Virus record (IMG/VR): IMGVR_UViG_3300028797_000097
DNA: 42,647 nt
Direction: 5' to 3' (one strand)
Source: a virus
Taxonomy: Duplodnaviria; Heunggongvirae; Uroviricota; Caudoviricetes
The position numbers and the translations under genes were made by a program. The notes below the pieces were generated by a model. That model was not told where the DNA came from, did no database searches, and saw nothing but the letters and a program-made list of their open reading frames with translations. Positions 2,727 to 28,362 of the stretch are shown here, one piece after another (position 1 is the stretch's first letter; each line of letters begins with the position of its first letter).

Positions 2727-2843
2727 ATGGGAAAGATACTTATGATACCGGTTACATTCGCTATTATTGGCATTGCATTCTGCTGTATGGCATCACCGTT
2801 TCTGGTACTGGGTGGTTCGTTTCTCAAAGGATTTATTGGATGA
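2727..2843 (+). CDS. 38-aa hydrophobic peptide between the ligase halves
   Basis: AAAGGA RBS; MGKILMIPVTFAIIGIAFCCMASPFLVLGGSFLKGFIG; ATGA overlap with ORF 2840. Confidence 0.6.
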   Translation: MGKILMIPVTFAIIGIAFCCMASPFLVLGGSFLKGFIG

Positions 2844-3670
2844 GTACATTACAAGAATTAGCAACACAACATAACTGGAATCTCCCTACAGTATGTCCTG
2901 TATGTGGATCCGCACTGGAGCTTTCTCCGAATCACATGCACTTGACCTGTACCAACGAGTTCTGTTCTAGCAGGGCATCAGGTACGATTGCGAAGTGGTG
3001 TTCCACAATCGGAATCAAGGAATTGGGTCTGACCACGATTGAGAAGGTACAGGAGCAAGGATTCTTCTCCAGCATTGGCAAAGCTTATCAGGAACTTGAT
3101 GATACAGCTATTGATGCGTACATGATTCCGTTGCTGGGTAAGAACTGGGCCAACATCAGAAAGGAGTTTGGTGCACACAGAGAGATGTCCCTTGCCCAGT
3201 TCATTGCTGGTTATAACATTGCAGGGATTGGTGAGAAGCAGGTACAGAAGGTAATCGATTTCTACTCCATTAAGGAGTTTGAGGGATTCTTCTGGTCTGA
3301 TAGCTCACAACGATTCGTGTGTGATGGCATCGGTTCTGTATTAAGTCAGAAATTGAGTAAAGGTCTCGAAGTCAATAAAGCTGACATGGAAGAAACCATT
3401 AAGCATATTAGGATTATTAAGCAGGAATTAGCTACAGGTAGTTTGACGGGTAAGAGTTTCTGTTTCACTGGCGCTATGGAATACAAGCGTAAGGACTTGC
3501 AGGACATGGTTACAGCACAAGGAGGTACGAACCTCGATTCCGTTACGAAGAATCTAACCTACCTGGTCATCGCGGATCCTAATTCCACATCCGGCAAGGC
3601 AAAGAAGGCACGCGAACTTGGTATCACTCTGATTTCACCTGAACAGTTCTTGGAAATGATAAATGGGTAA
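2840..3670 (+). CDS. ligA: NAD-dependent DNA ligase, C-terminal part (Zn finger, HhH, BRCT)
   Basis: CPVCG...CTNEFC zinc finger, GIG-type HhH motifs, BRCT (FCFTG...SVTKNLTYLV...KAKKARELGI). Confidence 0.9.
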   Translation: MSTLQELATQHNWNLPTVCPVCGSALELSPNHMHLTCTNEFCSSRASGTIAKWCSTIGIKELGLTTIEKVQEQGFFSSIGKAYQELDDTAIDAYMIPLLGKNWANIRKEFGAHREMSLAQFIAGYNIAGIGEKQVQKVIDFYSIKEFEGFFWSDSSQRFVCDGIGSVLSQKLSKGLEVNKADMEETIKHIRIIKQELATGSLTGKSFCFTGAMEYKRKDLQDMVTAQGGTNLDSVTKNLTYLVIADPNSTSGKAKKARELGITLISPEQFLEMING

Positions 3671-3977
3671 GGGTGTACAGGTTAAGTATCATTCCTTTGA
3701 CGAGAATGGTATGGAAACGACATACGAAAGAACAGTCTGTCGCGTGTACGTTCTGACCATACCTACACCAAACGGTGATGATGATTATTTGGTCCTGGGT
3801 ACAGACCAGAAAACGGAGTATTTGGGTCACCAACCAGATCTAGCAGTTATGATTTCGCCAGATGAATTTAATTTTGTTGAATTTAATGGCAAGACATATC
3901 ACTTACGTAATATCAGTGACCTAAACATTTGCTGTAATGACATTCAAACGGAACTTGATTTGACTGAGATTGACTGA
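3663..3977 (+). CDS. Hypothetical protein
   Basis: ORF overlapping the ligase-C stop codon. Confidence 0.65.
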   Translation: MGKGVQVKYHSFDENGMETTYERTVCRVYVLTIPTPNGDDDYLVLGTDQKTEYLGHQPDLAVMISPDEFNFVEFNGKTYHLRNISDLNICCNDIQTELDLTEID

Positions 3978-11988: not shown

Positions 11989-12019
11989 AAAAGAACCGGT
12001 TGTTATGACCGGTTTTCTT
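11989..12019. terminator. Bidirectional terminator between convergent units
   Basis: aaaagaaccggt-tgttatg-accggttttctt. Confidence 0.75.
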
Positions 12020-12422
12020 ATATCTCCTGTAACAGATCTTCCGTTCTGACCTGATCCAGCTCTATCTTAACCTCTGCGATATGGTTTAAGATCCACCATT
12101 CCGGATAAATAATACCATTTATGTCGATTATGTACCTGATATAATATACCTGACCTTTCTCATGTCCGCGATGATCCTCATGTAAGATTCTAGTCGGAAA
12201 ACGATAGTGTAGGAGTGGAACCCAGCTTTCGCATTTCCTGTACAGGGATGAAGCAGGAACAGGATAATCGCGCTGGCGAATTCTAGCATCACCCTCGCCC
12301 ACGATGTACCATATTCCGTCATGCTGGTGCAATCGGGGTTTGGACAGGTTAAAGGTACAATCCCATTCCCATACAGGATCATGGTATGATCCATAACTCC
12401 TTATCTCCTGTAACTTAATCAT
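12018..12422 (-). CDS. Array A paralog 11
   Basis: MIKL... to IDING...HIAEVKIELDQVRTEDLLQEI. Confidence 0.8.
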   Translation of the reverse strand: MIKLQEIRSYGSYHDPVWEWDCTFNLSKPRLHQHDGIWYIVGEGDARIRQRDYPVPASSLYRKCESWVPLLHYRFPTRILHEDHRGHEKGQVYYIRYIIDINGIIYPEWWILNHIAEVKIELDQVRTEDLLQEI

Positions 12423-12792
12423 CGATCTCCTGTATTACCTTTTCCGTGTGTATGTCCTCGATCAGCGCCTTAACCTCACTGAAATGATCCAGGAGGTATG
12501 TGTAATCATATACCTTACCATCAATCAGCAAGTCAATATCATGGGTACGCTTGGTGTAATCGATTTCCGCGTATTCGCCAATCCAGTCATGCGCGAAATG
12601 CCCGATGTACGCGAATGAGGTGTTCTTCTTCCGGTCGTACACCGATATATAAGTATCATCCTGTAAGTCTAGCTGGTTGAGGTTGGAAATAGGTGATACG
12701 ACCTTTTCTATTACTGGATCTATCGTATTTTCCAGATGCGTTTCTGTTCCGTGTGAATAATAGCTTGTAACTTTAAACTGTACCCTACTCAT
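12415..12792 (-). CDS. Array A paralog 10
   Basis: LLIDGKVY...HFSEVKALIEDIHTEKVIQEIDD. Confidence 0.8.
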   Translation of the reverse strand: MSRVQFKVTSYYSHGTETHLENTIDPVIEKVVSPISNLNQLDLQDDTYISVYDRKKNTSFAYIGHFAHDWIGEYAEIDYTKRTHDIDLLIDGKVYDYTYLLDHFSEVKALIEDIHTEKVIQEIDD

Positions 12793-13234
12793 CCATCCCC
12801 TTCAGATATAATTCCGTATTGTAATCGCTGATTTGGGACTGTAACCACGCGAAGTTCTCCTTAACCTCGTCATGCCAGTATTCCGTATCGTCTACGACCA
12901 GACAGAAGAAAGGTCCTGGATTCGTTTCTACTCCTGGTGGAGGCACATTCATACAGTCACTGGAATTAATGGTACAACCGTTAAACCAATCGCTATACCG
13001 TACTGTACCATCCTCCTCAATCTCTGATAGGTTGAATGTAACAGCGAGAACCTCACCAGTATGGATGTCACACCATTCCTGTCGATGTAACACCAGTGGT
13101 TTTGGGAGATCTATGTCCTCGCTGACCCATTCTGGATCCCCAAGCGTACCTCGAAGAGTAACATCCTTACCCTTTACCGTTCCGTGAATGTACATCCTGT
13201 TATGACCCTTGAAATATTTTCTCAATTTAATCAT
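12785..13234 (-). CDS. Array A paralog 9
   Basis: MIKLR... to LVVDDTEY...NTELYLKGMDE. Confidence 0.8.
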   Translation of the reverse strand: MIKLRKYFKGHNRMYIHGTVKGKDVTLRGTLGDPEWVSEDIDLPKPLVLHRQEWCDIHTGEVLAVTFNLSEIEEDGTVRYSDWFNGCTINSSDCMNVPPPGVETNPGPFFCLVVDDTEYWHDEVKENFAWLQSQISDYNTELYLKGMDE

Positions 13235-13592
13235 CTGTAATTTCCTCGATTAACTGTCTGGCAACAGCATCGCTTATAATCGCTCTCATTTCCGTTTCAT
13301 GGGAGTAAATGTCACTGTACCTGTACTCCTTACCATCTATCTCCAGATAGGTTTCATAGTTCAGGAACGTACCGATTTCGAACTGACAATGAGGAGTCTT
13401 AGGAAAACCACCATCCTCGCGTGGATCATAGAAATTGATTTCCAGTCTGTACTCACCTACTCCAGGATGGTAGTGTCGGGTTAATGGAGTAGGTTTGGTC
13501 TTGAGGAGAATAATCGGATACGATAAATCCGGAATATTCGTACTGTTTTGAGCTTTCTCGTTAAATGCTTTCGAAACTACTTTGATCATCAT
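13227..13592 (-). CDS. Array A paralog 8
   Basis: LEIDGKEYRYSDI..H..E...QLIEEITDD. Confidence 0.8.
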   Translation of the reverse strand: MMIKVVSKAFNEKAQNSTNIPDLSYPIILLKTKPTPLTRHYHPGVGEYRLEINFYDPREDGGFPKTPHCQFEIGTFLNYETYLEIDGKEYRYSDIYSHETEMRAIISDAVARQLIEEITDD

Positions 13593-13911
13593 CTATCTCC
13601 TGTAATAGCTTTTCCGTATATATACGATCGAATAACACCTTAAGTTCAGCGTAATGCTCCTTCACCTGTGCTTCATCGTACTCCTTATCATCTATCACCA
13701 GAATGGTACGGATTGTTCTGTACCCGTCCTTATCCAACTTCCATGTATCACCTATCCTGTCCCATGTATTCCACTCACTGGGAATCCCATCCCAACGATA
13801 GCTAATAGCTGGTACGGAACTCCTATCATCGAGGTGTACATCAAGGATGGTTTTGTCTTCTACCTTCTCCTCTGGTGTTCCAAGGTCGGTTATTGTACGT
13901 AGCTTAATCAT
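13561..13911 (-). CDS. Array A paralog 7
   Basis: LVIDDKEY...HYAELKVLFDRIYTEKLLQEIDD plus a short extension. Confidence 0.8.
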   Translation of the reverse strand: MIKLRTITDLGTPEEKVEDKTILDVHLDDRSSVPAISYRWDGIPSEWNTWDRIGDTWKLDKDGYRTIRTILVIDDKEYDEAQVKEHYAELKVLFDRIYTEKLLQEIDDDQSSFESI

Positions 13912-14215
13912 CTATCTCCTCTAAAAGCTTTTCCATACGCTCCTGGTCCAGTAACACCTTCACCTCAGCGTAATGCTTGCGAATCTTCTCTGCCCTGTAT
14001 TCCGTACCATTTATGACCAATGACGCGATAAAATCGACAAAACCTTCGCTATTCATGTATGTACCTAAAACGGAATAGTGTGATCCTGGGTACTCAGAAC
14101 TGCGGTCATAATGTACAGCGAGACCACACTTATCTTCTGATAGTACGACATTCCATATTTCTGCTTCTCGTACCTTAACTCTGGGGTAACAGTTCATGTA
14201 CCGTATCTTTACCAT
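13904..14215 (-). CDS. Array A paralog 6
   Basis: LVINGTEY...HYAEVKVLLDQERMEKLLEEIDD. Confidence 0.8.
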   Translation of the reverse strand: MVKIRYMNCYPRVKVREAEIWNVVLSEDKCGLAVHYDRSSEYPGSHYSVLGTYMNSEGFVDFIASLVINGTEYRAEKIRKHYAEVKVLLDQERMEKLLEEIDD

Positions 14216-14547
14216 TCTATCTCCTGCGTTATGGTTTCGATGTTTATCTCTGCTTCATAGTCTGACATTGCTGTCATAAGCTTTGCTGGTTCTTCCAGAA
14301 GTGAATAGGAGCGTACCCATTGCGAGGTAATTAGCTCCAGGAAGATACTGTCGGATTCGATCCAGTTCCGATTGATTCGCATACAGATTGGGGGTTGTCC
14401 CATGTCCTCCTGGATCCAATACTCCAGTTGAAACACTCCATCAAGGAGATAATACCTGTACCCATTGACCAGCTCATCAACTACTGGTTCTGGCGCTACG
14501 GAACGATCGTCACGCGGATTCTGTACTGTGTAATGAACCTTAATCAT
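14209..14547 (-). CDS. Array A paralog 5
   Basis: IFLELITSQW...LMTAMSDYE...TQEIEW; most similar to paralog 4. Confidence 0.8.
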   Translation of the reverse strand: MIKVHYTVQNPRDDRSVAPEPVVDELVNGYRYYLLDGVFQLEYWIQEDMGQPPICMRINRNWIESDSIFLELITSQWVRSYSLLEEPAKLMTAMSDYEAEINIETITQEIEW

Positions 14548-14842
14548 CTATCTCCTCTAAAAGCTTTTCCGTTTCATAGTCTGACATCGCGGCCATAAGT
14601 ACAGTGGGGGATTCAGCGAAGGAGTACTTCCTGGTCCAGCGTGGGGTTTCCAGTTCTAGGTAGATCCTGTCATAATGGAGATTCCACCCCTTACCGACAT
14701 GCATCGGTTCTGGGGGTTCATCTGGACCCATCCATTCCCTATAGAAGAATTCGAATTCACCATTATAGATCTGGTACTGGTATTCTCCAAATACCGGATC
14801 CACGATTACCGGATCCACGTTCTCATACCTGATCCGAATCAT
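14540..14842 (-). CDS. Array A paralog 4
   Basis: IYLELETPRW...LMAAMSDYETEKLLEEIDD. Confidence 0.8.
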   Translation of the reverse strand: MIRIRYENVDPVIVDPVFGEYQYQIYNGEFEFFYREWMGPDEPPEPMHVGKGWNLHYDRIYLELETPRWTRKYSFAESPTVLMAAMSDYETEKLLEEIDD

Positions 14843-15203
14843 CTATATCCTCCAACAGGTGTTCCGTCTCGTTTATGTCCAGTAACGACCGTACCTCTGC
14901 GATATGGGTTACAATCTCTGAGTAACGCCATTCCTTACCGTCTATCTCCAACCATGAGTCGTGATTGGTGAATCGACCCAGCCTGACCTTATGCATCTGA
15001 TGTACCTTCTCCGTATCGGTAAGGGAGTACCAATGAGGAGTATCGTAATACTGTATCTCCAAGTACTTGGTGTCGATCGCGTCTATTTGCCGTTCCATCT
15101 TATGCGGATCCACGTCCATGAGACGTAGCTGTACCAGGTGATACACCTCACTGGGATGAGGATCCTCGTTCAGGTCCGGAATATGGAGTAACACCTTAAC
15201 CAT
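14823..15203 (-). CDS. Array A paralog 3
   Basis: LEIDGKEWRYSEI..HIAEV...ETEHLLEDIDD. Confidence 0.8.
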   Translation of the reverse strand: MVKVLLHIPDLNEDPHPSEVYHLVQLRLMDVDPHKMERQIDAIDTKYLEIQYYDTPHWYSLTDTEKVHQMHKVRLGRFTNHDSWLEIDGKEWRYSEIVTHIAEVRSLLDINETEHLLEDIDDSDQV

Positions 15204-15672
15204 CTATCTCCTCCAGTAATGTATCAGTACGGATCTGGTCGAATAACACCTTCATGTCCATCATATGTTCCTTCAAGTACTCGAACGGGTATTCTTTCCA
15301 GTTGATGTACAGTATGGACTTACAGGGGTACAGGATGGTGTTGATCCCATGCGCGAATCTGGTTTTTCCAACACGGAGATTCTGTATCTCCTCCCTGTAC
15401 ATACTTGGAGGCGGTTCCAAGTACCGACCAATGTCTATCTTCACCCTATCTCCTACCTTACGAAGCGGATCATGCCCCTTCCATGACTGGACTCGACCCC
15501 GAATAACAATCGATTGGTTCGACATCTGTACCCGATAGTCCTTAAGATTATAGGTTTCCAGTTCTATCGTAACAGATTTAGGATCCAGGGTATGAGAGGA
15601 GAAATCCAGCTCCGGTTTTATTCCATCCCATTTACACTGATAGGAGTACATTTCTACTGTAACGTTATACAT
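15196..15672 (-). CDS. Array A paralog 2 (start reassigned to MYNVTV)
   Basis: GGAGGA RBS and overlap junction at 15672; LYINWKEY...HMMDMKVLFDQIRTDTLLEEIDG. Confidence 0.8.
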   Translation of the reverse strand: MYNVTVEMYSYQCKWDGIKPELDFSSHTLDPKSVTIELETYNLKDYRVQMSNQSIVIRGRVQSWKGHDPLRKVGDRVKIDIGRYLEPPPSMYREEIQNLRVGKTRFAHGINTILYPCKSILYINWKEYPFEYLKEHMMDMKVLFDQIRTDTLLEEIDG

Positions 15673-16123
15673 CCATGTCCTCCAGTAACATATCAGTACG
15701 GACTTGGTCCAGGAGAATGCGTAAGTCATTCAAATGATCTCGTACATACTGGTTATTATATTCCGTACCATCTATAATCAATGTACTGTGGCGCGTGATG
15801 TTTATATACTTAACCGTTGGACTTATCCGGAATTGTTTTGCATATCTAGCGCGTTCCACATCTGTTATCGCCCTGTCCTCATCCAGTGTGAATAGCCAGG
15901 ATTCTCCCTTTCTCCTTAATACCCAACTATCATCCACAACCTTTCCGTCCTGATCATGTAGTTCTGTAACAATAGCGTTAACCTTCATAATACTAGGATC
16001 CATAGCGAAATATCCCAGAGAAACGGAACAAGGATCCAACAGGAACTCGTGATACCACGATCCTGGAATGATTCCTTCCCTACTGTACTTATACCTGTAA
16101 TTCCGTACTAAAACACTATGCAT
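15665..16123 (-). CDS. Array A paralog 1
   Basis: LIIDGTEY...HLNDLRILLDQVRTDMLLEDMDV. Confidence 0.8.
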   Translation of the reverse strand: MHSVLVRNYRYKYSREGIIPGSWYHEFLLDPCSVSLGYFAMDPSIMKVNAIVTELHDQDGKVVDDSWVLRRKGESWLFTLDEDRAITDVERARYAKQFRISPTVKYINITRHSTLIIDGTEYNNQYVRDHLNDLRILLDQVRTDMLLEDMDV

Positions 16124-17281: not shown

Positions 17282-17310
17282 TTGAAAAAAGGGCTATTTT
17301 TTGATATATT
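17282..17310 (+). promoter_or_regulatory. Early promoter driving array B
   Basis: TTGAAA-N17-TATATT. Confidence 0.7.
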
Positions 17311-17319
17311 TGGTATATT

Positions 17320-17691
17320 ATGGATAATATGGATATGGAACCTTTATTGAAGTCGTATATTAGGTATGCGATGGGATTTGTGCCTAAGGAGCGGATGGCA
17401 TATGCTACTAATAATGGTAAATATGACCGTATTAAGATATTGGTTAATTCTAAGGGTAATATAATTGAAGAAAATACATATGCTATAACCTTTGAGTTAT
17501 ATAATGGTGAACAGCGTATTATTATAGGTAGTTTGTGGTTATCGGGAAGGAATCTTTATATAATAGAGACGGTATGTAATATCGTATTATATAGAAGACA
17601 TATACAGGAAATGATGGAATTTAATGAATTTTGTGAAAAGAATAATAATATTCCTAAGGGTATATTGAAGATTCCTACGAGGTTAGTATGA
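17320..17691 (+). CDS. Array B paralog 1
   Basis: LKSYIRYA... to IPKGILKIPTRLV. Confidence 0.8.
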   Translation: MDNMDMEPLLKSYIRYAMGFVPKERMAYATNNGKYDRIKILVNSKGNIIEENTYAITFELYNGEQRIIIGSLWLSGRNLYIIETVCNIVLYRRHIQEMMEFNEFCEKNNNIPKGILKIPTRLV

Positions 17692-18053
17692 CAGATTTTG
17701 ATAGTTTAAAATCATATATTGCGTATATTGTGAAAAATACAGGTTTTAAGGTTGAGCAGTGGCTATTACTGTCATTGGTAAATTTAAATAAGGAAAGTAT
17801 TAAGATAACGACTATATTGAATGATGGTAGTGCGTTATTCGATATATTGGATTATTTAGGGAATAATAAGATTATTGGTCGTATATGGTTTAATTGTAAC
17901 CATATAGTGCTTGTTAAAAATGAGGTTGAGCGTTCGCTGTTATATATTGGTTGGCCTGAAGATGTCGATTTATATAGTGTATTTGAGAAGAAAGTGATGT
18001 TACCTGTGGTTCCTTCTGGAATTTTGAAGATTCCTACTGATTTTAAGGTATGA
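17688..18053 (+). CDS. Array B paralog 2
   Basis: LKSYIAYI... to LPVVPSGILKIP. Confidence 0.8.
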   Translation: MTDFDSLKSYIAYIVKNTGFKVEQWLLLSLVNLNKESIKITTILNDGSALFDILDYLGNNKIIGRIWFNCNHIVLVKNEVERSLLYIGWPEDVDLYSVFEKKVMLPVVPSGILKIPTDFKV

Positions 18054-18054
18054 T

Positions 18055-18456
18055 ATGATAGATATTAGCGGAATAACTATGAAAGAATTGACAGAATATG
18101 CCGATTACTGTATGGGTAAGATACCTATAGAGGAGCGTTCTCGATTTCCTGGCGAGATGCGGGGAATAAGTAACGAGGTACGGTGTGACCGATATCATGG
18201 AGTTGAATCTGCTATAATAGATGCAAGCCCTGAGGATAAGAGTTTTATTATAGACATATATGATTCTAGTCGTAGGCAGGTTATGGCGGCTAGGATATGG
18301 TTGAACAACGGGCGTATTTATTTGATTGATTGGCTTGAGACTAGTTTATTATATGATAAGACGCCTGATGGGATTGAAACTTTTGAGGAGTTTAAGGCGA
18401 GGATAACGTTACCTAAGGTTCCTGCTGGGATATTGAAGATACCGGAGAGAATATGA
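18055..18456 (+). CDS. Array B paralog 3
   Basis: LTEYADYC... to LPKVPAGILKIPERI. Confidence 0.8.
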   Translation: MIDISGITMKELTEYADYCMGKIPIEERSRFPGEMRGISNEVRCDRYHGVESAIIDASPEDKSFIIDIYDSSRRQVMAARIWLNNGRIYLIDWLETSLLYDKTPDGIETFEEFKARITLPKVPAGILKIPERI

Positions 18457-18824
18457 GATATAGTGATTGGGAAATATTAATGTATGTAAGGTATTGTCTG
18501 GATAAGGTTTTATATTTTCAGGAAGGTGATCATATAAAAATGAGACATGATCATATAAAACTGAGACATGATTTTTGTAGTGATAGTATTATTATATATC
18601 CAGATAATACTGTTATGGCAGATATATTTTCTATGGGTGGAAGTCTTAAAACGACTGTCGCATTAAGTTTGGGTGAAGTTCATATTTATGCAGTGGATAT
18701 GATAGGTTATACGACATTATATGATGGAAGGCCTGCTACTGTAATGAATATTTCAGAATATATTGACAGTATAACGTTGCCTAAGGTTCCGAAAGGAATA
18801 TTGAAGATACCGGAGAAGTTATAA
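18453..18824 (+). CDS. Array B paralog 4
   Basis: LMYVRYC... to LPKVPKGILKIPEKL. Confidence 0.8.
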   Translation: MRYSDWEILMYVRYCLDKVLYFQEGDHIKMRHDHIKLRHDFCSDSIIIYPDNTVMADIFSMGGSLKTTVALSLGEVHIYAVDMIGYTTLYDGRPATVMNISEYIDSITLPKVPKGILKIPEKL

Positions 18825-19204
18825 TGTATATCGAGAATTATAAAGAAGAATTGATGGAATACATTAAGAGTTCTTTGGATAAGTTGCCATATAAGAGCGT
18901 ATTGTCGTCATTTGACCGGATTGAAATAACTGGGGAAGCGAATAATAATGGGGAATTTAAAGTAGAGTCTGGTATATTGTTTGATATGTGTAATGCAGAA
19001 AATGTAGTTATGTCGGGCTGTGTTTGGTATGATTATGGAACAATATACATTATAACAAAAAATGAAGATTATGAACATTATTATGCTTCAAATTGTTTAT
19101 ATTATGGACATCCTGATACATCTGTTGGTTTTGAAGAGTTTTTGAACAGTCAATTACCTAAGGTTCCAGTTGGTATTTTGAAACTTCCAGAGAGGGTTGC
19201 ATAA
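18824..19204 (+). CDS. Array B paralog 5
   Basis: LMEYIKSS... to LPKVPVGILKLPERVA. Confidence 0.8.
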   Translation: MYIENYKEELMEYIKSSLDKLPYKSVLSSFDRIEITGEANNNGEFKVESGILFDMCNAENVVMSGCVWYDYGTIYIITKNEDYEHYYASNCLYYGHPDTSVGFEEFLNSQLPKVPVGILKLPERVA

Positions 19205-19662
19205 TGACAAATTCTGAAATTGTTAAAGGATATGTATCGTATTGTATTTGTTATGTTCCTCGTGTTCATACAGCACGAGGTGAGATGCCGCTTGCGATAT
19301 TTAAGTTGGCTAATGTAAATATAGAACAGAATTCTAATGGAATTAACTACATTAATTTTGATTTGGTTGACGAATATGGGGTAATGTTTGCCGCGAATCA
19401 AAATTCATTTTATGAAAGAGCATTAAATCCTTATGGATTTTATAATGCTGGTTTAAACCATGTTGTTGTAAAAGGAAATATATCTATGAAGACTGGATAT
19501 ATTCAGTTAATAGATACATTTAATGGTCGGTGGTTTTACAGCGGGATTCCTGATAGTATTCGGACTTTTGACCAATATGTGGAAAATTTGGAAGAACGTG
19601 GACTTAAAGAGAAACCTAAGGGATTGTTGAAGATTCCTGCACATATGATGACAGCGGTATAG
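19204..19662 (+). CDS. Array B paralog 6
   Basis: VKGYVSYC... to KPKGLLKIPAH. Confidence 0.8.
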   Translation: MTNSEIVKGYVSYCICYVPRVHTARGEMPLAIFKLANVNIEQNSNGINYINFDLVDEYGVMFAANQNSFYERALNPYGFYNAGLNHVVVKGNISMKTGYIQLIDTFNGRWFYSGIPDSIRTFDQYVENLEERGLKEKPKGLLKIPAHMMTAV

Positions 19663-19663
19663 A

Positions 19664-20023
19664 ATGGCAGAAATTATAAGTAAAGAAACTGATGATGTGG
19701 AAACATTATATAAATATGTCCAATTCTGTCTTGAGAAAGCCAGAGTCGGGAAGTTATATAATTTGACTTTAGAAAAGCTGACAAAAACAGGAAATTTATA
19801 TTTTTATTATATGACGCAGAATTCTGGAACTCTTAGGATAATGTGTTATATTAATTTACATACATGTTATTATAATGCGTTTGAACCACGATGTCGTCGG
19901 TATATTCATCATAGTATAATAAAGGGAATACCTAATTATATTGATTTTGCAAGTAATAACGAACAAGGATTTGTAAGTGTTCCGAAGGGAATATTGAAGA
20001 TTCCGAAAAATTTAGGAGTATAA
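19664..20023 (+). CDS. Array B paralog 7
   Basis: LYKYVQFC... to VPKGILKIPKNL. Confidence 0.8.
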   Translation: MAEIISKETDDVETLYKYVQFCLEKARVGKLYNLTLEKLTKTGNLYFYYMTQNSGTLRIMCYINLHTCYYNAFEPRCRRYIHHSIIKGIPNYIDFASNNEQGFVSVPKGILKIPKNLGV

Positions 20024-20024
20024 T

Positions 20025-20405
20025 ATGCAACAATATACAGATTTTGAATTAACCAGGGTAAATAGTTATTTCAGGTTATGTATTGATTCGATTAAGGATA
20101 AGTTAGATCTTGAAACATATAACCTTGGTGTAATTTTACCTCATGGATCGGTTATTACATGTGTAGTTAAGTGTTATAAGAAGCCTCGTAATAAAATGGA
20201 TTTATATTCTGTTCTTTATAGGGATTATGCATTGCCTAAACAATATTATTGCATGATTGATGTTAAGCGAAATAATATAACGGTTAAGAACTTAGATGAT
20301 GGTGAAACATTATTTAGAGGAAAAACCGGAGTTAATACCACTTTTTCGGATTTTGTGTATGGTAAAGTTCGAAAAGGATTATTGAAAATTCCAGCAAAGT
20401 TATAA
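20025..20405 (+). CDS. Array B paralog 8
   Basis: VNSYFRLC... to KVRKGLLKIPAKL. Confidence 0.8.
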   Translation: MQQYTDFELTRVNSYFRLCIDSIKDKLDLETYNLGVILPHGSVITCVVKCYKKPRNKMDLYSVLYRDYALPKQYYCMIDVKRNNITVKNLDDGETLFRGKTGVNTTFSDFVYGKVRKGLLKIPAKL

Positions 20406-20408
20406 AGA

Positions 20409-20434
20409 AAAAGACCTGATTAACAGGTCTTTTT
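20409..20434 (+). terminator. Terminator ending array B
   Basis: aaaagacctg-attaa-caggtcttttt. Confidence 0.8.
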
Positions 20435-20455
20435 ATTTTACCCTATAAATAATGT

Positions 20456-21820
20456 ATGACGAAATTATCAGAAAGTGAGAAGTTTAATGACCTTGATATA
20501 AATCGATTGGCTAGACAGGTTAGACAGAATGACGGTCGTGCTAATCGAGGGATTGTATATCAGGACGATAAGCGATATAATGATTATCAGGGTGAGAAAT
20601 GGCTGGATGTAAGAAGTAAGGATAAGAAAACTCTTATTGCAGCTATCCTTGACGGTATGTCTGATGTTCAATATCATTATAAGGGAAAGTTATATAAAGA
20701 TATTAAGAACGAGGATGATTTAATGGCCTCATACGAAGCCAATAAGGCTGTTGTGGACTCGATTTTAAATTTCCTAAGTAAATATATGCATGGACATACA
20801 ACGGTCTACAGAGGCTTCGGATTTAGCTCTGATGAGTATCGTAGGATGAAGCACAAGAATAATATTACATTTGAACATCAGTTCTTGAAAATATTGAATA
20901 ATAGGGGTAAGAAATTTAATTCTTTTAGTGTTTCTCCATTTATAAGTAAGGATTTTGCAGAAGGTGGTGGTAATAAAGCCATTGTCATTGCCGCAGATGT
21001 AGAACCGAATGATATTGCTTTCGCATTTACTGCTTATTTGTTGGGAAGACATGGAAGTCCTGAAGAATTGGAATTGAATATCAATAACCTTAAGGATTTA
21101 AAGAATTTAAGAATTATTAAAGATATTGATGCTGAATGTGCACGATTTGTTAAATATACAGATACAGAAGAAGAATTACAGAAAAGATTGGATTCTGGCG
21201 AATCTATGGAATCTGTATTTAAGTATGTAAAGAAACTTAAGGTTTTTAGCGGAACAATTTATAAATGTGGAACATTATGTGGTGAGGTTATTGTCAAGGA
21301 TAATAAGATTGTTGTTCCTCGTAGTAGAGAAATACATTATATAAAAGACGGAATATTTGTTATTACTCCTATGGATGATCCTACTGAACATAATATATTG
21401 TATAACTTTAATAATGAAACTAAGAGCAAGTCATATGAAGGTATATTATTCTATGGTGCTGATAGCGATGATAAATTGATAATCGCATATAATGGTGATA
21501 ACAAGTATACATTATTGGATATGGAAACATGTGAATCGAAATTCAAGGGATATGCAAAGAAAATTTCACGCTTACCAGGAGTTACATGGTACGGGCAGAA
21601 AAATATTTGGCATACTGTTGAATTTTATTTAGTAACATTAATGGATAACACAGTTACAATTTTCAACAATACTGGTCATTGTGTATTCAGACGTGCCCCA
21701 TATACGTTTACTAAGATTGATTGCGACTCAGATAAATTGATAATGACTTGTCTGGAACAACCTGGTAAAAAACCTCGACGATTCTCAATCAAAAATAATT
21801 TAGCAATCGAAGAAATGTAA
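20456..21820 (+). CDS. Putative ADP-ribosyltransferase (R-S-E type) with C-terminal beta-repeat region; late gene
   Basis: TVYRG...FNSFSVS...EELEL motif order; TATAAATA at 20444. Confidence 0.55.
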   Translation: MTKLSESEKFNDLDINRLARQVRQNDGRANRGIVYQDDKRYNDYQGEKWLDVRSKDKKTLIAAILDGMSDVQYHYKGKLYKDIKNEDDLMASYEANKAVVDSILNFLSKYMHGHTTVYRGFGFSSDEYRRMKHKNNITFEHQFLKILNNRGKKFNSFSVSPFISKDFAEGGGNKAIVIAADVEPNDIAFAFTAYLLGRHGSPEELELNINNLKDLKNLRIIKDIDAECARFVKYTDTEEELQKRLDSGESMESVFKYVKKLKVFSGTIYKCGTLCGEVIVKDNKIVVPRSREIHYIKDGIFVITPMDDPTEHNILYNFNNETKSKSYEGILFYGADSDDKLIIAYNGDNKYTLLDMETCESKFKGYAKKISRLPGVTWYGQKNIWHTVEFYLVTLMDNTVTIFNNTGHCVFRRAPYTFTKIDCDSDKLIMTCLEQPGKKPRRFSIKNNLAIEEM

Positions 21821-21857: not shown

Positions 21858-24800
21858 TTAATAAAAGAATTCGTCTAATGCTGAATCTTCCAATATTAAT
21901 TCGTCGCCTTTTCTCATCCATTTTGAAATAATATACATGGATTCAAATAGGGCACAGAAAGATTTTCTAAACATTGTTTCATAGTCGATTGTAAACAATG
22001 AATCGAACTCCTTTGGCCAGCTATCCAAGAATGCGACAAAGTTAACTGGATTCAAACCTGACTTACCGACTTCCTTATACTTGAACTCATTATTTGGCAA
22101 TACATAAATGTATTTCATCTTTGTATTGTTGTTAATCGGGTTAAGTTTCAATCTCTTCTTTGCGACAACATAGTTATAAGTTAATGCTGCTTTTGCACCG
22201 AAAATAACTGAAGCATTATCACCCTTATCGAATTCAAGACCATTCTTTACATAGTAATCGATTGGTTCTGGAATGTATTTCTTATAATTAGAAATACCGA
22301 TAACTGCAGAAATTTCATTGACACTGGAATTACAATATTTTGTATACGTGTCCTTGATGAATCTATCTGCATGGTCCTTAGACATACCATTACAAATATC
22401 GAATGCTAACTTTTCAGCTGCAACTTTACAGAAGTCAGGCATTGTAGATTTCTTAATAGGAACACCCATGATCTTGTGTTTCGGTCCTTCTGGATGTTTC
22501 TGCATAGATTTCGGCAATGCTTTCCATTCTTCTTCAGTCATTGCAAACTTATCGATTTCACCCATTGGGAAGATAGAACCTTCGTTATCGATTACGTTAC
22601 CAATATAGAGTTTCTTTGCGAAACAGAACATGTTGGTAAAGATATTTTCTCTGTTGAACTTAATCAACTGTTCAGTCTTCTTTAGCTTAGCCTTATAAGC
22701 AAGAACTCCGTTATAGAAATCCTGGAACATCTTTTCTGCCTTTTCGAAGAATGCTCTATATTCATCTGCAACAGACTTGTTGTAATCCATGATTGCTCTA
22801 TTCTTCTTATGCATTTCTGCAAGCTGAGCATCAGTCATTCTATCTTCTGGATGTAACAATTCCTTGATTTGTCTACCAGAGAAATAACCTTCTTCGATAA
22901 GTCTTTGTTTGATTTCATGAATACACATATAACAAGAGTCAGTATCGTTATGGATAATGCAAGCTTCTCTATTAGTAATCTTTAACGACGCCTTGTTCTT
23001 TAATGTAATACCGAAATACTTTTCAATATCTCTGATACATTCTGGTGTTGTATAATAATTATTACAGCACTTAGACAACCAGTCTCTTAAAGTAACTCTT
23101 GCACATCTACAAATTGCTCTAGCACAGTCTGGGTTATAAAGATGGAAGGAACCAGCAAGGGAAACACCATAAACAGAGTTAATGATAAGCTTTTTCGTCA
23201 TCTGTCTATTGTGACAAAGATTTTCCATGTCCTTATCACCTGCAATCTTTGCTTCTTCTTCTTTCTGTTTCCAAATCTTTCTTTCAGCAAAAACTTTCTT
23301 AACAATATTCGGAAGAATTGCATCGTCAGTTCTTAAGAAACCAACTTCTGCAACGTCTGACAATATAACTTCACCAGATTCAATCTGTTCCTTAGTCGGA
23401 TGTCTAACGACAGTTTCTGGAGAAATATTGAACATCATAATGTGGTGAGGATAAGACGACGTAATATCGAATGACATACAATCGTCAAATCTACCAGGAT
23501 AGTCATAACAGTAACCTGCCTTAGTTGCAAACTTTTCAAATGGATGAGGCCATGCTTTAAACTTTTCCATGTCTTCAGAGAAAAGTTGTGCAGTTGACCT
23601 AAATACGCCTTTAACCTTTTTCGGTTTCCAGAACTTTGCAATATCACCACGATAAATTTCAATGCTTTCGCCCTTGTTGATCTTATCCTTGATTTGATAC
23701 TTTATAAATTCTGGATTATCATCTTCCCATTCAGTGTTCTGATAGTAGATGGAACCATCTTTTTGCTTAATCTTATAACATTCTTCTTCAGCCCACCAGT
23801 CTTCATGTTCTTTCTGTTTATCGAGAAGAACTTTACCGTGTTCATGTAAGAATCTAAGAATATAACCAGTCGTTGTAGGAACTTTATTTTGAACTTTATC
23901 AAGAGTAACAAGACAGTCGAAAGCATATTCAATAAGTAACGGAATGAGCTTGTTCTTTTCTTCCATTCTAACGATAAGCATAACGTCTTTTCGGTTATAC
24001 TGTGCGAACCTATCCCAATTATACTTATAGGTTTCGTTAATGGAACCATCATATTCGAGCTTACTATCTTCAAGTTCAAAATTAGCAACATAGTTAAGAG
24101 AATAAGAAGGCATTGGAGGATGGTTTCCAAAGACCTTATACAATTCCATATAGTCGATAGAATACAAGCCAGGAATATCATAAGACATGCCTAAATCAAC
24201 ATCTTCGAGCTTACGGTCAGTAATCTGTTTTGTTTCAGGCATTTTATTGAATGGAGATAACTTTCTTTCCCATTCAGTCCTAACATCTTTATTCTTTAAT
24301 CTTAACTTATTACATCTGTTTACAATATAAGGAACGTCATAAGAGACAGAGTTCCAACCAGAGATAATATCGAAATCCTGTTTCTGGAACCACTTAGTCC
24401 ACTTATCAATCAAATCAATTTCATTTTTACAAGGAATATAGTTTGGTAATTCTTGAACATCACCAAAATATGGTTTTAAGCCCCAAGTATAAGATTGTTT
24501 TGTTTTGGTCGAATAACACGTAATTAAGTTAATTGGCCATTCTGCTTTTTCTGGAGCTGGGAATTCATAAGTAACATAACATGAGTCTTCATACTTGACC
24601 CACATGTGTTGTTGTTCATCGAAAACTTCGTATTTAGATTTATCTTTACACTTTGTATCAAAAGCATATAATTCACATTGACCGAATTTCTTTCTATCGA
24701 TACTTCTGATTTCGATTATATGATCGTCATAGAATGGAGAAGAACCTGCAACTTCAATATCGAAGAAGCAAGTATTCCAATCACTAATGTCTACTGATAA

Positions 24801-25085
24801 TTCAGCTTTATCATAACGTTCATGCATGAATTTGACTTCTGGTTTTAAGTCTGATTCTGCAATGATTGCACCTGATGCTTTTAAAGCTGCGATTTCGTCT
24901 TTATTTGTATAATCATATCGTTTTAACGACCTCTTATACATATCTTTATATTCACCCTTATTTTCTGGGTCTGTAATATAACACCATGGTGAATATTTAA
25001 ATTTTTGCCAACCTGGAACGCCTTGTTCTTTCAGGTATATATTTTTCTTAAAGCTATCGAAATAGCAATTCTTAAATCCTGTCAT
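21858..25085 (-). CDS. Family B DNA polymerase (T4 gp43-like)
   Basis: ExoI FDIE, ExoII GWNS..YD, ExoIII YN..D; pol motifs FDITSSYP, K...NSVYG, DTDS, KKLY; C-terminal SALDEFF clamp-binding-like tail. Confidence 0.95.
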   Translation of the reverse strand: MTGFKNCYFDSFKKNIYLKEQGVPGWQKFKYSPWCYITDPENKGEYKDMYKRSLKRYDYTNKDEIAALKASGAIIAESDLKPEVKFMHERYDKAELSVDISDWNTCFFDIEVAGSSPFYDDHIIEIRSIDRKKFGQCELYAFDTKCKDKSKYEVFDEQQHMWVKYEDSCYVTYEFPAPEKAEWPINLITCYSTKTKQSYTWGLKPYFGDVQELPNYIPCKNEIDLIDKWTKWFQKQDFDIISGWNSVSYDVPYIVNRCNKLRLKNKDVRTEWERKLSPFNKMPETKQITDRKLEDVDLGMSYDIPGLYSIDYMELYKVFGNHPPMPSYSLNYVANFELEDSKLEYDGSINETYKYNWDRFAQYNRKDVMLIVRMEEKNKLIPLLIEYAFDCLVTLDKVQNKVPTTTGYILRFLHEHGKVLLDKQKEHEDWWAEEECYKIKQKDGSIYYQNTEWEDDNPEFIKYQIKDKINKGESIEIYRGDIAKFWKPKKVKGVFRSTAQLFSEDMEKFKAWPHPFEKFATKAGYCYDYPGRFDDCMSFDITSSYPHHIMMFNISPETVVRHPTKEQIESGEVILSDVAEVGFLRTDDAILPNIVKKVFAERKIWKQKEEEAKIAGDKDMENLCHNRQMTKKLIINSVYGVSLAGSFHLYNPDCARAICRCARVTLRDWLSKCCNNYYTTPECIRDIEKYFGITLKNKASLKITNREACIIHNDTDSCYMCIHEIKQRLIEEGYFSGRQIKELLHPEDRMTDAQLAEMHKKNRAIMDYNKSVADEYRAFFEKAEKMFQDFYNGVLAYKAKLKKTEQLIKFNRENIFTNMFCFAKKLYIGNVIDNEGSIFPMGEIDKFAMTEEEWKALPKSMQKHPEGPKHKIMGVPIKKSTMPDFCKVAAEKLAFDICNGMSKDHADRFIKDTYTKYCNSSVNEISAVIGISNYKKYIPEPIDYYVKNGLEFDKGDNASVIFGAKAALTYNYVVAKKRLKLNPINNNTKMKYIYVLPNNEFKYKEVGKSGLNPVNFVAFLDSWPKEFDSLFTIDYETMFRKSFCALFESMYIISKWMRKGDELILEDSALDEFFY

Positions 25086-27675: not shown

Positions 27676-28362
27676 TTAGATTAACTTAGTTTTTACTTTG
27701 TCAATTAAACCTAATTTCTTAGCTTCAGATGCAGACATGTAATTATCATAAGAAGTCAATGTCTTTAATTCATCGAGATCCTTACCAGTCTGTTTCTTAA
27801 AGATCTTATTCATATTATCAGTCCAAACTTGAAGTTCATGCTGAATAATATTAATATCATTTAATTTACCACCTGTTGCTTCGATACCTGCTTGATGAAT
27901 CATAATTCTCGAAGAAGGGAATGCATATCTGTGACCGATTGTTCCACTTGCAAGAATAACAGATGCCATAGAAGAGCAAGAACCAATACAAATTGTATGA
28001 ACTTCAATTTCTTTACGCTTCAATTCATTAATGCAGTCGATAATTGCAAAACCAGCATCGCATTCGCCACCAGGAGAAGAAATATAAATCGTTACAGGTT
28101 TCTTTGTTCCATCATCATAGAACGCAAGCTTCTGAATTACTCTAATGCCAATTTCCCATGTAATAGGACCGACAATAAACAGAACGCGGTTTGCTTCGAA
28201 ATAATTATTTCTAACAATATCAAAGTAATTCCCAAGCTCGCCAAGATTAACTTGTTGACCTTCACCTTCTTCAGGAGGTAAATCCTCTTCTGGATCAAGT
28301 GGTTCTACATTTGGATTTTCATTTTGCGGAAAGAGCGGAGATTTTGTGTCTTTTGAATACAT
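27676..28362 (-). CDS. clpP: ATP-dependent Clp protease proteolytic subunit
   Basis: YISSPGG, SMAS (catalytic Ser), RIMIHQ (His), DNYMSA.EA...GLID. Confidence 0.92.
   Translation of the reverse strand: MYSKDTKSPLFPQNENPNVEPLDPEEDLPPEEGEGQQVNLGELGNYFDIVRNNYFEANRVLFIVGPITWEIGIRVIQKLAFYDDGTKKPVTIYISSPGGECDAGFAIIDCINELKRKEIEVHTICIGSCSSMASVILASGTIGHRYAFPSSRIMIHQAGIEATGGKLNDINIIQHELQVWTDNMNKIFKKQTGKDLDELKTLTSYDNYMSASEAKKLGLIDKVKTKLI

Follow-up and report, generated by a model that had tools for sequence, protein, structure and literature searches.

Why do eight adjacent genes for divergent small phage proteins all end in one nearly invariant peptide? The question is raised by a tandem array of paralogs, termed array B, at positions 17320-20405 of a 42,647-nucleotide stretch of DNA from a tailed virus (IMG/VR record IMGVR_UViG_3300028797_000097; this whole stretch is called the window below). 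The peptide, which has the written-out form LPKVPKGILKIPEKL, lies a few residues from the C-terminus of each protein. Taken together, codon usage, occurrence on other protein families and structure prediction suggest that it is probably a portable C-terminal docking or address tag carried by diversified early proteins and acting at the protein level. The eight genes and their tail cores are as follows.

17320..17691, + strand: paralog 1, 123 amino acids; tail core 17659-17676
17688..18053, + strand: paralog 2, 121 amino acids; tail core 18018-18035
18055..18456, + strand: paralog 3, 133 amino acids; tail core 18427-18444; left crossover point of a five-copy variant
18453..18824, + strand: paralog 4, 123 amino acids; tail core 18795-18812; the member modelled with AlphaFold2
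18824..19204, + strand: paralog 5, 126 amino acids; tail core 19172-19189 (GILKLP)
19204..19662, + strand: paralog 6, 152 amino acids; tail core 19621-19638 (GLLKIP); right crossover point of the five-copy variant
19664..20023, + strand: paralog 7, 119 amino acids; tail core 19988-20005
20025..20405, + strand: paralog 8, 126 amino acids; tail core 20376-20393 (R-K-GLLKIP)

The eight open reading frames (ORFs) are packed, with overlaps of 1-4 nt or gaps of 1-2 nt, and the encoded proteins share only 15-37% pairwise identity, with isoelectric points ranging from 4.5 to 9.3; this divergence suggests that the bodies may be diversified recognition domains. All have the same layout: an N-terminal helix gives way to a middle rich in beta structure and then to a short helix with F.EF, and the C-terminus carries (L)PxVPxG[IL]LK[IL]P. 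The alignment consensus includes G.IWL...IY.I, LY.G.P, F.EF and LPKVPKGILKIP, and Y13, the Y of L..Y..YC, is invariant in all eight proteins, as are four tail residues (G, L, K and the last P). Every tail fits P-x-G-[IL]-L-K-[IL]-P, with the stop codon 3-7 residues further on. A six-frame regular-expression search of the 42.6 kb for G[ILVM]L[KRSTQ][ILVM]P recovered the eight array B C-termini and one weaker match in an antisense frame. The motif does not overlap the following start codon; the ribosome-binding site of the following gene (GAGG/GGAG) is encoded by the codons after the tail.

An earlier note, made from the sequence alone, had described eight genes of 119-152 amino acids at this locus, with an L..Y..YC helix, a G.IW...IY...LY middle, an F..F motif and a tail motif separate from the next start codon. 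The ORF listing, the alignment and the regular-expression search agree with that description in coordinates, number, sizes and motif; each of the body motifs is present in the alignment consensus, and the tail ends 3-7 codons before the stop. Beyond the window, the core GILKIP is retained in all but two of about 120 metagenome homologues.

Codon comparisons address the level at which the tail is conserved. Within the window, tail codons vary at third positions (CCT/CCG/CCA, GGT/GGA/GGG, ATA/ATT and AAG/AAA). Over 91 distinct DNA copies of the tail, collected from all fetched loci, the invariant Gly is written with four codons and Pro with four, and the central Leu, present in 87 of the 91 copies, with five. 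In pairwise comparison, core codons differ by 11488 synonymous and 4258 non-synonymous changes, the latter being mostly exchanges among I, L and V. Orthologues of paralogs 1 and 3 vary least in the tail core and most in the residues after it (mean column entropy, 0.05 bit for the core, 0.38-0.77 for the bodies and 1.1-2.2 after the tail). Since codons are exchanged freely among synonyms but the encoded residues remain constant, these comparisons indicate that the tail peptide is under purifying selection as amino acids, in support of the protein-level conservation that the earlier note had proposed. An origin of the motif as a Shine-Dalgarno or promoter sequence was considered and rejected: the distance to the next start varies, TTGAAG and TATAAT are not consistently spaced, and the motif precedes the ribosome-binding site.

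The tail is also found on three further protein families, A2, A3/A5 and a 190-amino-acid family (contig C24, 22 kb, of the related assembly G001, and 18 metagenome loci). A2 proteins, of about 140 amino acids, are encoded in five to six tandem copies, and many of them stop exactly after ...PVPKGILK[ILV]. As A2 often ends at ...GILK[ILV], the final Pro and the residues beyond it appear dispensable. A3/A5 proteins have 110-160 amino acids. Profile alignment using hhalign matched array B to A2 over the last 27 columns only, and to A3 over the last 15 columns only. Within A3/A5, the bodies are homologous and can be aligned as far as S[GE]FF; beyond this point, some continue as LPxVPKGLLxIP and others as an acidic tail (...GIEFMDI or ...EFEDI). 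The acidic form is similar to the ends of the array A proteins (...LLEEIDD), which are encoded close to array B. The loci of this two-tailed family are listed here.

L052:1165-3166, L012:9380-11221, L061 and L075: A3/A5 family with two kinds of tail (alignment A5)

Acidic-hydrophobic C-termini recur in the window, on array A (12018-16123, minus strand; ...LLEEIDD) and on a 104-amino-acid protein (3663-3977; ...ELDLTEID), and a related end, ...ALDEFFY, is present on the DNA polymerase (21858-25085). To judge from these endings, such C-termini might constitute another shared tag, possibly one for docking on the sliding clamp.

Proteins of the type encoded on C24 are present on contigs of up to 417,694 bp, which puts these in one size class with the array B contigs. 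Since the four tail-bearing families are co-binned and occur on contigs of the same 415-427 kb size class, they very probably share one genome, which would then probably encode 13-18 tail-bearing proteins, array B and the other three families included. The A2 array also encloses a gene for a rhomboid-family intramembrane protease (181 amino acids; PF01694, E 6e-12; L012:13684-14229, minus strand, on C24), and this placement is kept in six of six independent contigs (L012 and also L032-L037). A rhomboid protease is unusual in a phage.

Structure prediction places the tail outside the folded part of the protein. The AlphaFold2 model of paralog 4, built from a 32-row alignment, has a mean pLDDT (predicted local distance difference test) of 82.7 and consists of a helix at residues 5-19, five strands within 35-92 and a helix at 100-108; tail residues 109-123 are coil with a pLDDT of 53-56. 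An A3/A5 member, modelled from a 15-row alignment, is all-alpha with a pLDDT of 78, and its tail is again coil, at 51-54. The tail is thus predicted to be disordered and outside the fold on two different predicted folds. The earlier note had held that a motif folded as a buried structural strand would speak against its proposal; in neither monomer model is the tail such a strand (coil, pLDDT about 51-56, on two folds). A two-copy co-fold of paralog 4 as a homodimer (alignment A4) scored 0.00 against a mark of 0.42 in a run without controls, and is evidence neither way.

Family and fold searches gave no assignment for the bodies. Pfam, PHROGs and NCBIfam yielded only sub-threshold noise for all eight array B proteins. 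For the array B model, the best matches were below the noise mark in Foldseek against the PDB (E 0.02), in BFVD (E 0.013) and in the ESM Atlas (template-modelling score 0.48), and an ESM Atlas feature search gave scores of at most 0.84. VIA-align against PDB representatives gave a best Z of 5.4, with cystatin-, NTF2- and immunity-protein-like entries tied at Z 4-5, which is again within noise. For the all-alpha A3/A5 family, the fold search reached a best Z of 4.7.

The transcription signals around array B are as follows.

17282..17310, + strand: sigma-70-type early promoter (TTGAAA, 17 nt, TG-TATATT; 10/12 matches in a consensus scan, with an extended -10 TG), directly 5' of gene 1
20409..20439, + strand: intrinsic-terminator-like hairpin and T run, read from the sequence, closing the operon after gene 8

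The late box TATAAATA of the gene after array B is located at 20444, whereas none of the eight array B genes has this box on its 5' side (0/8); the single TATAAATA within the array, at 19709, falls inside coding sequence. Because array B has its own sigma-70-type promoter and terminator and lacks a late box, these consensus matches suggest that it forms one early operon.

Under the docking-tag interpretation, the consensus (L)P-x-V-P-x-G-[IL]-L-[KRS]-[ILV](P) would hang flexibly off small, unrelated and fast-diverging early proteins and would plug all of them into one common receptor. The variable bodies would then be the specificity parts. As a by-product, the tail codons provide short homology for gene loss, duplication and shuffling. 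The earlier note had likewise proposed a short linear docking or sorting signal, comparable to adaptor tails that dock on Clp unfoldases. The properties expected of such a signal, that is, a short linear motif that is flexible and modular (carried by four families and exchanged for an acidic tail), agree with the results given above; the comparison with Clp stands as an analogy only. By that analogy, a protein-turnover or remodelling machine of the host or the phage (the N-domain of an AAA+ unfoldase or a protease) is the leading guess for the hub, and a tentative one; the tail-bearing proteins would in that case be adaptors delivering bound host targets, or would be removed on schedule themselves. 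On the phage DNA examined there is no gene for an unfoldase, RNA polymerase or clamp that could be such a partner; in the related assembly, the T4-type clamp (PF09116) gave no match, the Clp/Hsp100-type ATPase (PF07724) matched non-phage contigs only, and the two matches to Cpn60 (PF00118) are on non-phage contigs of an archaeal-looking bin only. It is conceivable, although doubtful, that the basic-hydrophobic PxGILKIP and the acidic ...EEIDD / ...EFMDI endings make up a two-tag 'address code' on some 20-30 fast-evolving early proteins with several folds, routing them to two hubs.

Several points weigh against a docking tag shared by unrelated proteins. The common receptor, and any binding by the tail, are putative. 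The bodies of array B and A2, which were compared by sequence only, may be very distant relatives, a helix before the tail being common to both. The alignments behind the two structure models are shallow, with 32 and 15 rows, and a low pLDDT is no proof of disorder. Gene conversion could explain part of the uniformity of tails within the array, the tail DNA being a crossover site. Also, the placement of four families in one genome is drawn from co-binning and the 415-427 kb contigs, not from reading a single contig.

The use of the tail DNA as a crossover site is a feature absent from the earlier note. Tail codons are crossover points for gene deletion, duplication and shuffling. In a 191-kb relative with five copies, the third gene corresponds to paralog 3 up to the tail and to paralog 6 beyond it, and the switch, which joins window position 18440 to 19615, is inside the tail codons. 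Copy number among relatives is 5, 6 or 8. The endings after the tail are uncoupled from the bodies in metagenomic homologues, where paralog-1 bodies are found with paralog-2-, -3- or -4-type ends and paralog-3 bodies with paralog-6- or paralog-7-type ends. All of these observations would be in line with a tail kept mainly as DNA, as a cassette junction for shuffling, deletion and duplication of genes with the peptide as a passenger. This is nevertheless unlikely: third positions are free while the amino acids are fixed, so that identity between copies is too patchy for a selected feature, the three other families keep the same peptide with different codons, and the distance from the tail to the next gene differs in some of them. 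Because synonymous change is free, the crossover role appears to be a consequence of tail conservation, not its cause. It is also improbable that the tail is a structural strand completing the fold or donated to a neighbouring subunit in homo- or hetero-oligomers. The sequence of the proline-flanked GILKI looks typical of a short edge-adding beta strand, and the array B body is beta-rich, but both monomer models show the tail as coil of low confidence, and it is also attached to an all-alpha body; homologous bodies bearing a wholly different acidic tail are hard to reconcile with fold completion.

A closer relative of the docking interpretation, in effect a special case of it, is that the tail is a degron or timing device by which the early proteins are themselves removed by a protease after the early phase, the bodies acting independently of the tail. 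The early-only operon, the exposure of the tail in the models at no more than eight residues from the C-terminus, and C-terminal residues that are nearly all non-polar, as in known C-terminal degrons, agree with this possibility; ssrA-type tags are C-terminal degrons with non-polar ends. Known C-terminal degrons are, however, short and tolerant, whereas the invariant 10-12-residue pattern punctuated by Pro and Gly is more like a specific peptide-domain contact, and the non-polar last residues are partly forced by the overlap of start and stop codons. Removal by a protease as the main role is, on balance, rather unlikely. Finally, the tail might act as a nascent-chain pausing element near the stop, tuning translational coupling to the next gene, given that stops and starts overlap, that the next ribosome-binding site directly follows the tail and that Pro/Gly C-terminal peptides can in general slow elongation or termination, as is known for SecM-type arrest peptides. 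The tail-to-stop distance of 0-8 codons provides no fixed geometry for such pausing, and the tail is retained in the final gene of the operon, which is followed by a terminator and not by a gene; pausing is thus very improbable.

The docking-tag interpretation can be compared with known systems in which diverse proteins share one short terminal peptide. The nearest concept is that of the internal proteins of T4-type phages: IPI, IPII, IPIII and Alt are diverse small proteins with one conserved terminal targeting peptide and are encoded in a hyperplastic genome region (PMC3012670). As with the capsid targeting sequence of these proteins, the array B peptide is short, terminal and shared by diverse small proteins. 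The T4 tag is N-terminal and is cleaved by the prohead protease late in head assembly, whereas the array B tag is C-terminal and unrelated in sequence, and the array B operon has an early promoter and no late box. No T4-style N-terminal targeting peptide was found in array B, whose N-termini share a loose helix pattern and one invariant Tyr. Because array B appears to be expressed early, from a sigma-70-type promoter only, capsid targeting appears less likely.

Adaptors of ClpX provide a second comparison. The C-terminal tail of SspB has the sequence LRVVK. In SspB-type adaptors, a flexible linker connects a folded binding domain to a short hydrophobic/basic tether at the C-terminus, and the architecture of the array B proteins would be analogous. 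The motif itself differs from that of SspB, and Pfam, PHROG and NCBIfam searches detected no SspB domain in the eight proteins. SspB is reported to tether itself to ClpX (PMC9963277).

In virus-private families of poxviruses, the ankyrin/PRANC (F-box-like) and BTB-Kelch proteins, paralogs with variable target-binding parts carry a constant C-terminal dock for a degradation machine of the host. The poxvirus docks are folded domains (about 40 residues) and belong to viruses of eukaryotes. The array B element belongs to a phage and is a peptide with about 10 residues, and its link to degradation would be one of analogy.

Sliding clamps are hubs for several proteins at once: T4-type gp43, gp33 and gp55 have short C-terminal clamp-binding tails, and the C-terminus of T4/RB69 gp43 has an acidic-hydrophobic clamp-binding shape. 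The DNA polymerase of the present phage ends in ...ALDEFFY, which has the acidic-hydrophobic shape expected of a clamp-binding tail. The array B tail is basic-hydrophobic and Pro/Gly-rich and has no pattern in common with it; closer to the polymerase end are the acidic tails found in array A and in part of the A3/A5 proteins. The clamp is therefore disfavoured as the array B hub, the ...LDEFFY end of the phage's own polymerase being unlike PKGILKIPxxx.

In recombination, the array resembles early regions of T4-type phages, where mobile regulatory cassettes (promoter-early stem-loops) lie between the genes; Arbiol et al. are said to have described these cassettes in 2010 as recombination points shuffling small genes. 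Like those cassettes, array B has short repeats at gene borders, and a crossover inside the tail codons is seen directly; the T4 cassettes are non-coding and kept as DNA, whereas the array B repeat is coding and kept as protein.

Other known signals were considered and rejected. Sortase, exosortase and rhombosortase signals (LPXTG, PEP-CTERM and GlyGly-CTERM), in which a transmembrane helix and a basic cluster come after the signature, do not agree with the mere 0-8 residues after the motif, which contain no hydrophobic segment; one tail-bearing array does enclose a rhomboid gene. The patterns of the GroES mobile loop, FtsZ C-terminal peptide, encapsulin cargo-loading peptides, MIM2 proline motifs, beta-clamp QLxLF, PDZ class II ligands and DnaK-binding sites each fail to fit all conserved positions.

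The distribution of the peptide is narrow. In 241 million metagenome records, VPKGILKI has exact DNA matches at 118 loci, of which 100 are not at an ORF end; the remaining 18 are C-terminal and all belong to the same phage lineage. Among 185,579 species genomes, an exact DNA scan for PKGILKIP gave 91 loci, about 80 of them scattered with respect to ORFs and stops, and C-terminal instances are confined to contigs of the same phage and one further hit (L224) that was judged to be chance. Since matches outside the lineage are scattered and those within it are always 0-8 residues from a stop, the C-terminal position is specific. The motif search near C-termini that the earlier note had recommended thus leads, apart from that chance hit, to a single phage lineage. 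Mimicry of a cellular C-terminus was rejected, as the near-C-terminal peptide in the 185,579 genomes is found on contigs of the phage lineage only, L224 being chance. Only two true array contigs are present in IMG/VR, and HMMER over 1.84 billion representatives found only 23 clusters. Homologues of the array proteins are located on contigs of 415,750, 418,880 and 427,410 bp. These searches indicate that the array B family and its tag are private to one clade of ruminant-gut phages of about 415-427 kb. A literature search for 'GILKIP' found no paper.

The source is a giant, uncultured T4-related phage of about 420 kb from the ruminant gut. The window encodes a family B DNA polymerase of 1075 amino acids with 26-29% identity to cyanophage gp43, and also topoisomerase II subunits, an NAD-dependent ligase, a GroES-like protein, a ClpP/S49-type prohead protease and tail tube proteins. 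The array stretch is present in bovine gut metagenomes from several studies; no RNA run is among the runs listed with it, and in four DNA runs the contigs are short and end within the array, so that they show no more than its presence. The nearest assembly, G001, contains a 191-kb contig with 87-97% identity to the window and is recorded as a goat-gut 'Methanobrevibacter' metagenome-assembled genome (MAG); two more Methanobrevibacter MAGs and one Bacilli MAG carry the same phage.

G001 C83 and C24; L168, L183, L210, L222, L227 and L181: phage contigs filed in MAGs

The non-phage contigs of G001 look archaeal (aIF5A and two Cpn60/thermosome-like genes). Given the sigma-70-type promoters, Shine-Dalgarno sites, LigA and GroES of the phage, the Methanobrevibacter binning is taken as an artefact and the host as a bacterium.

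Several other genes of this phage have uncommon features. The NAD-dependent DNA ligase is split into two ORFs (1527-2651 and 2840-3670) that match PHROG profile positions 8-383 and 382-654 with a gap of about 190 bp, which could reflect a split gene or an intervening element. The head maturation protease (27676-28362, minus strand) is ClpP/S49-like (phrog_94, E 5e-35) and not of the T4 gp21 kind, in contrast to the T4-like replication and late-promoter features. The late gene following array B (20456-21820; 454 amino acids) has by eye an R...S-x-S...E-x-E arrangement (YRG, SVSP and ELE) reminiscent of ADP-ribosyltransferases; Pfam and PDB sequence searches with it gave no significant match. 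On C24, a thymidylate synthase ORF (L012:6019-7698) of 559 amino acids is about twice the usual size; its length points to a large insertion.

Giant phages have many genes for small early proteins that belong to private families and whose role is obscure. In this lineage, one invariant peptide of 8-12 residues unites four such families, or about 4% of the genes, and a set of orphan proteins comes down to a single question that can be tackled, that of the binding partner of the peptide. Fast gain and loss of genes is also driven by the tag codons, and the occurrence of two tails on homologous bodies suggests that the phage re-routes proteins by exchanging short tags. If the doubtful two-tag 'address code' is real, PxGILKIP would bind a receptor that is new as a peptide-docking hub in bacteria or phages, and the arrays would be the phage counterpart of viral F-box-type adaptors, delivering varied host proteins (e.g., defence proteins) to one machine. 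Once the hub is named, each variable body would become a candidate binder of a different host target, and the tail could serve as a small cargo-directing tag in this phage-host system.

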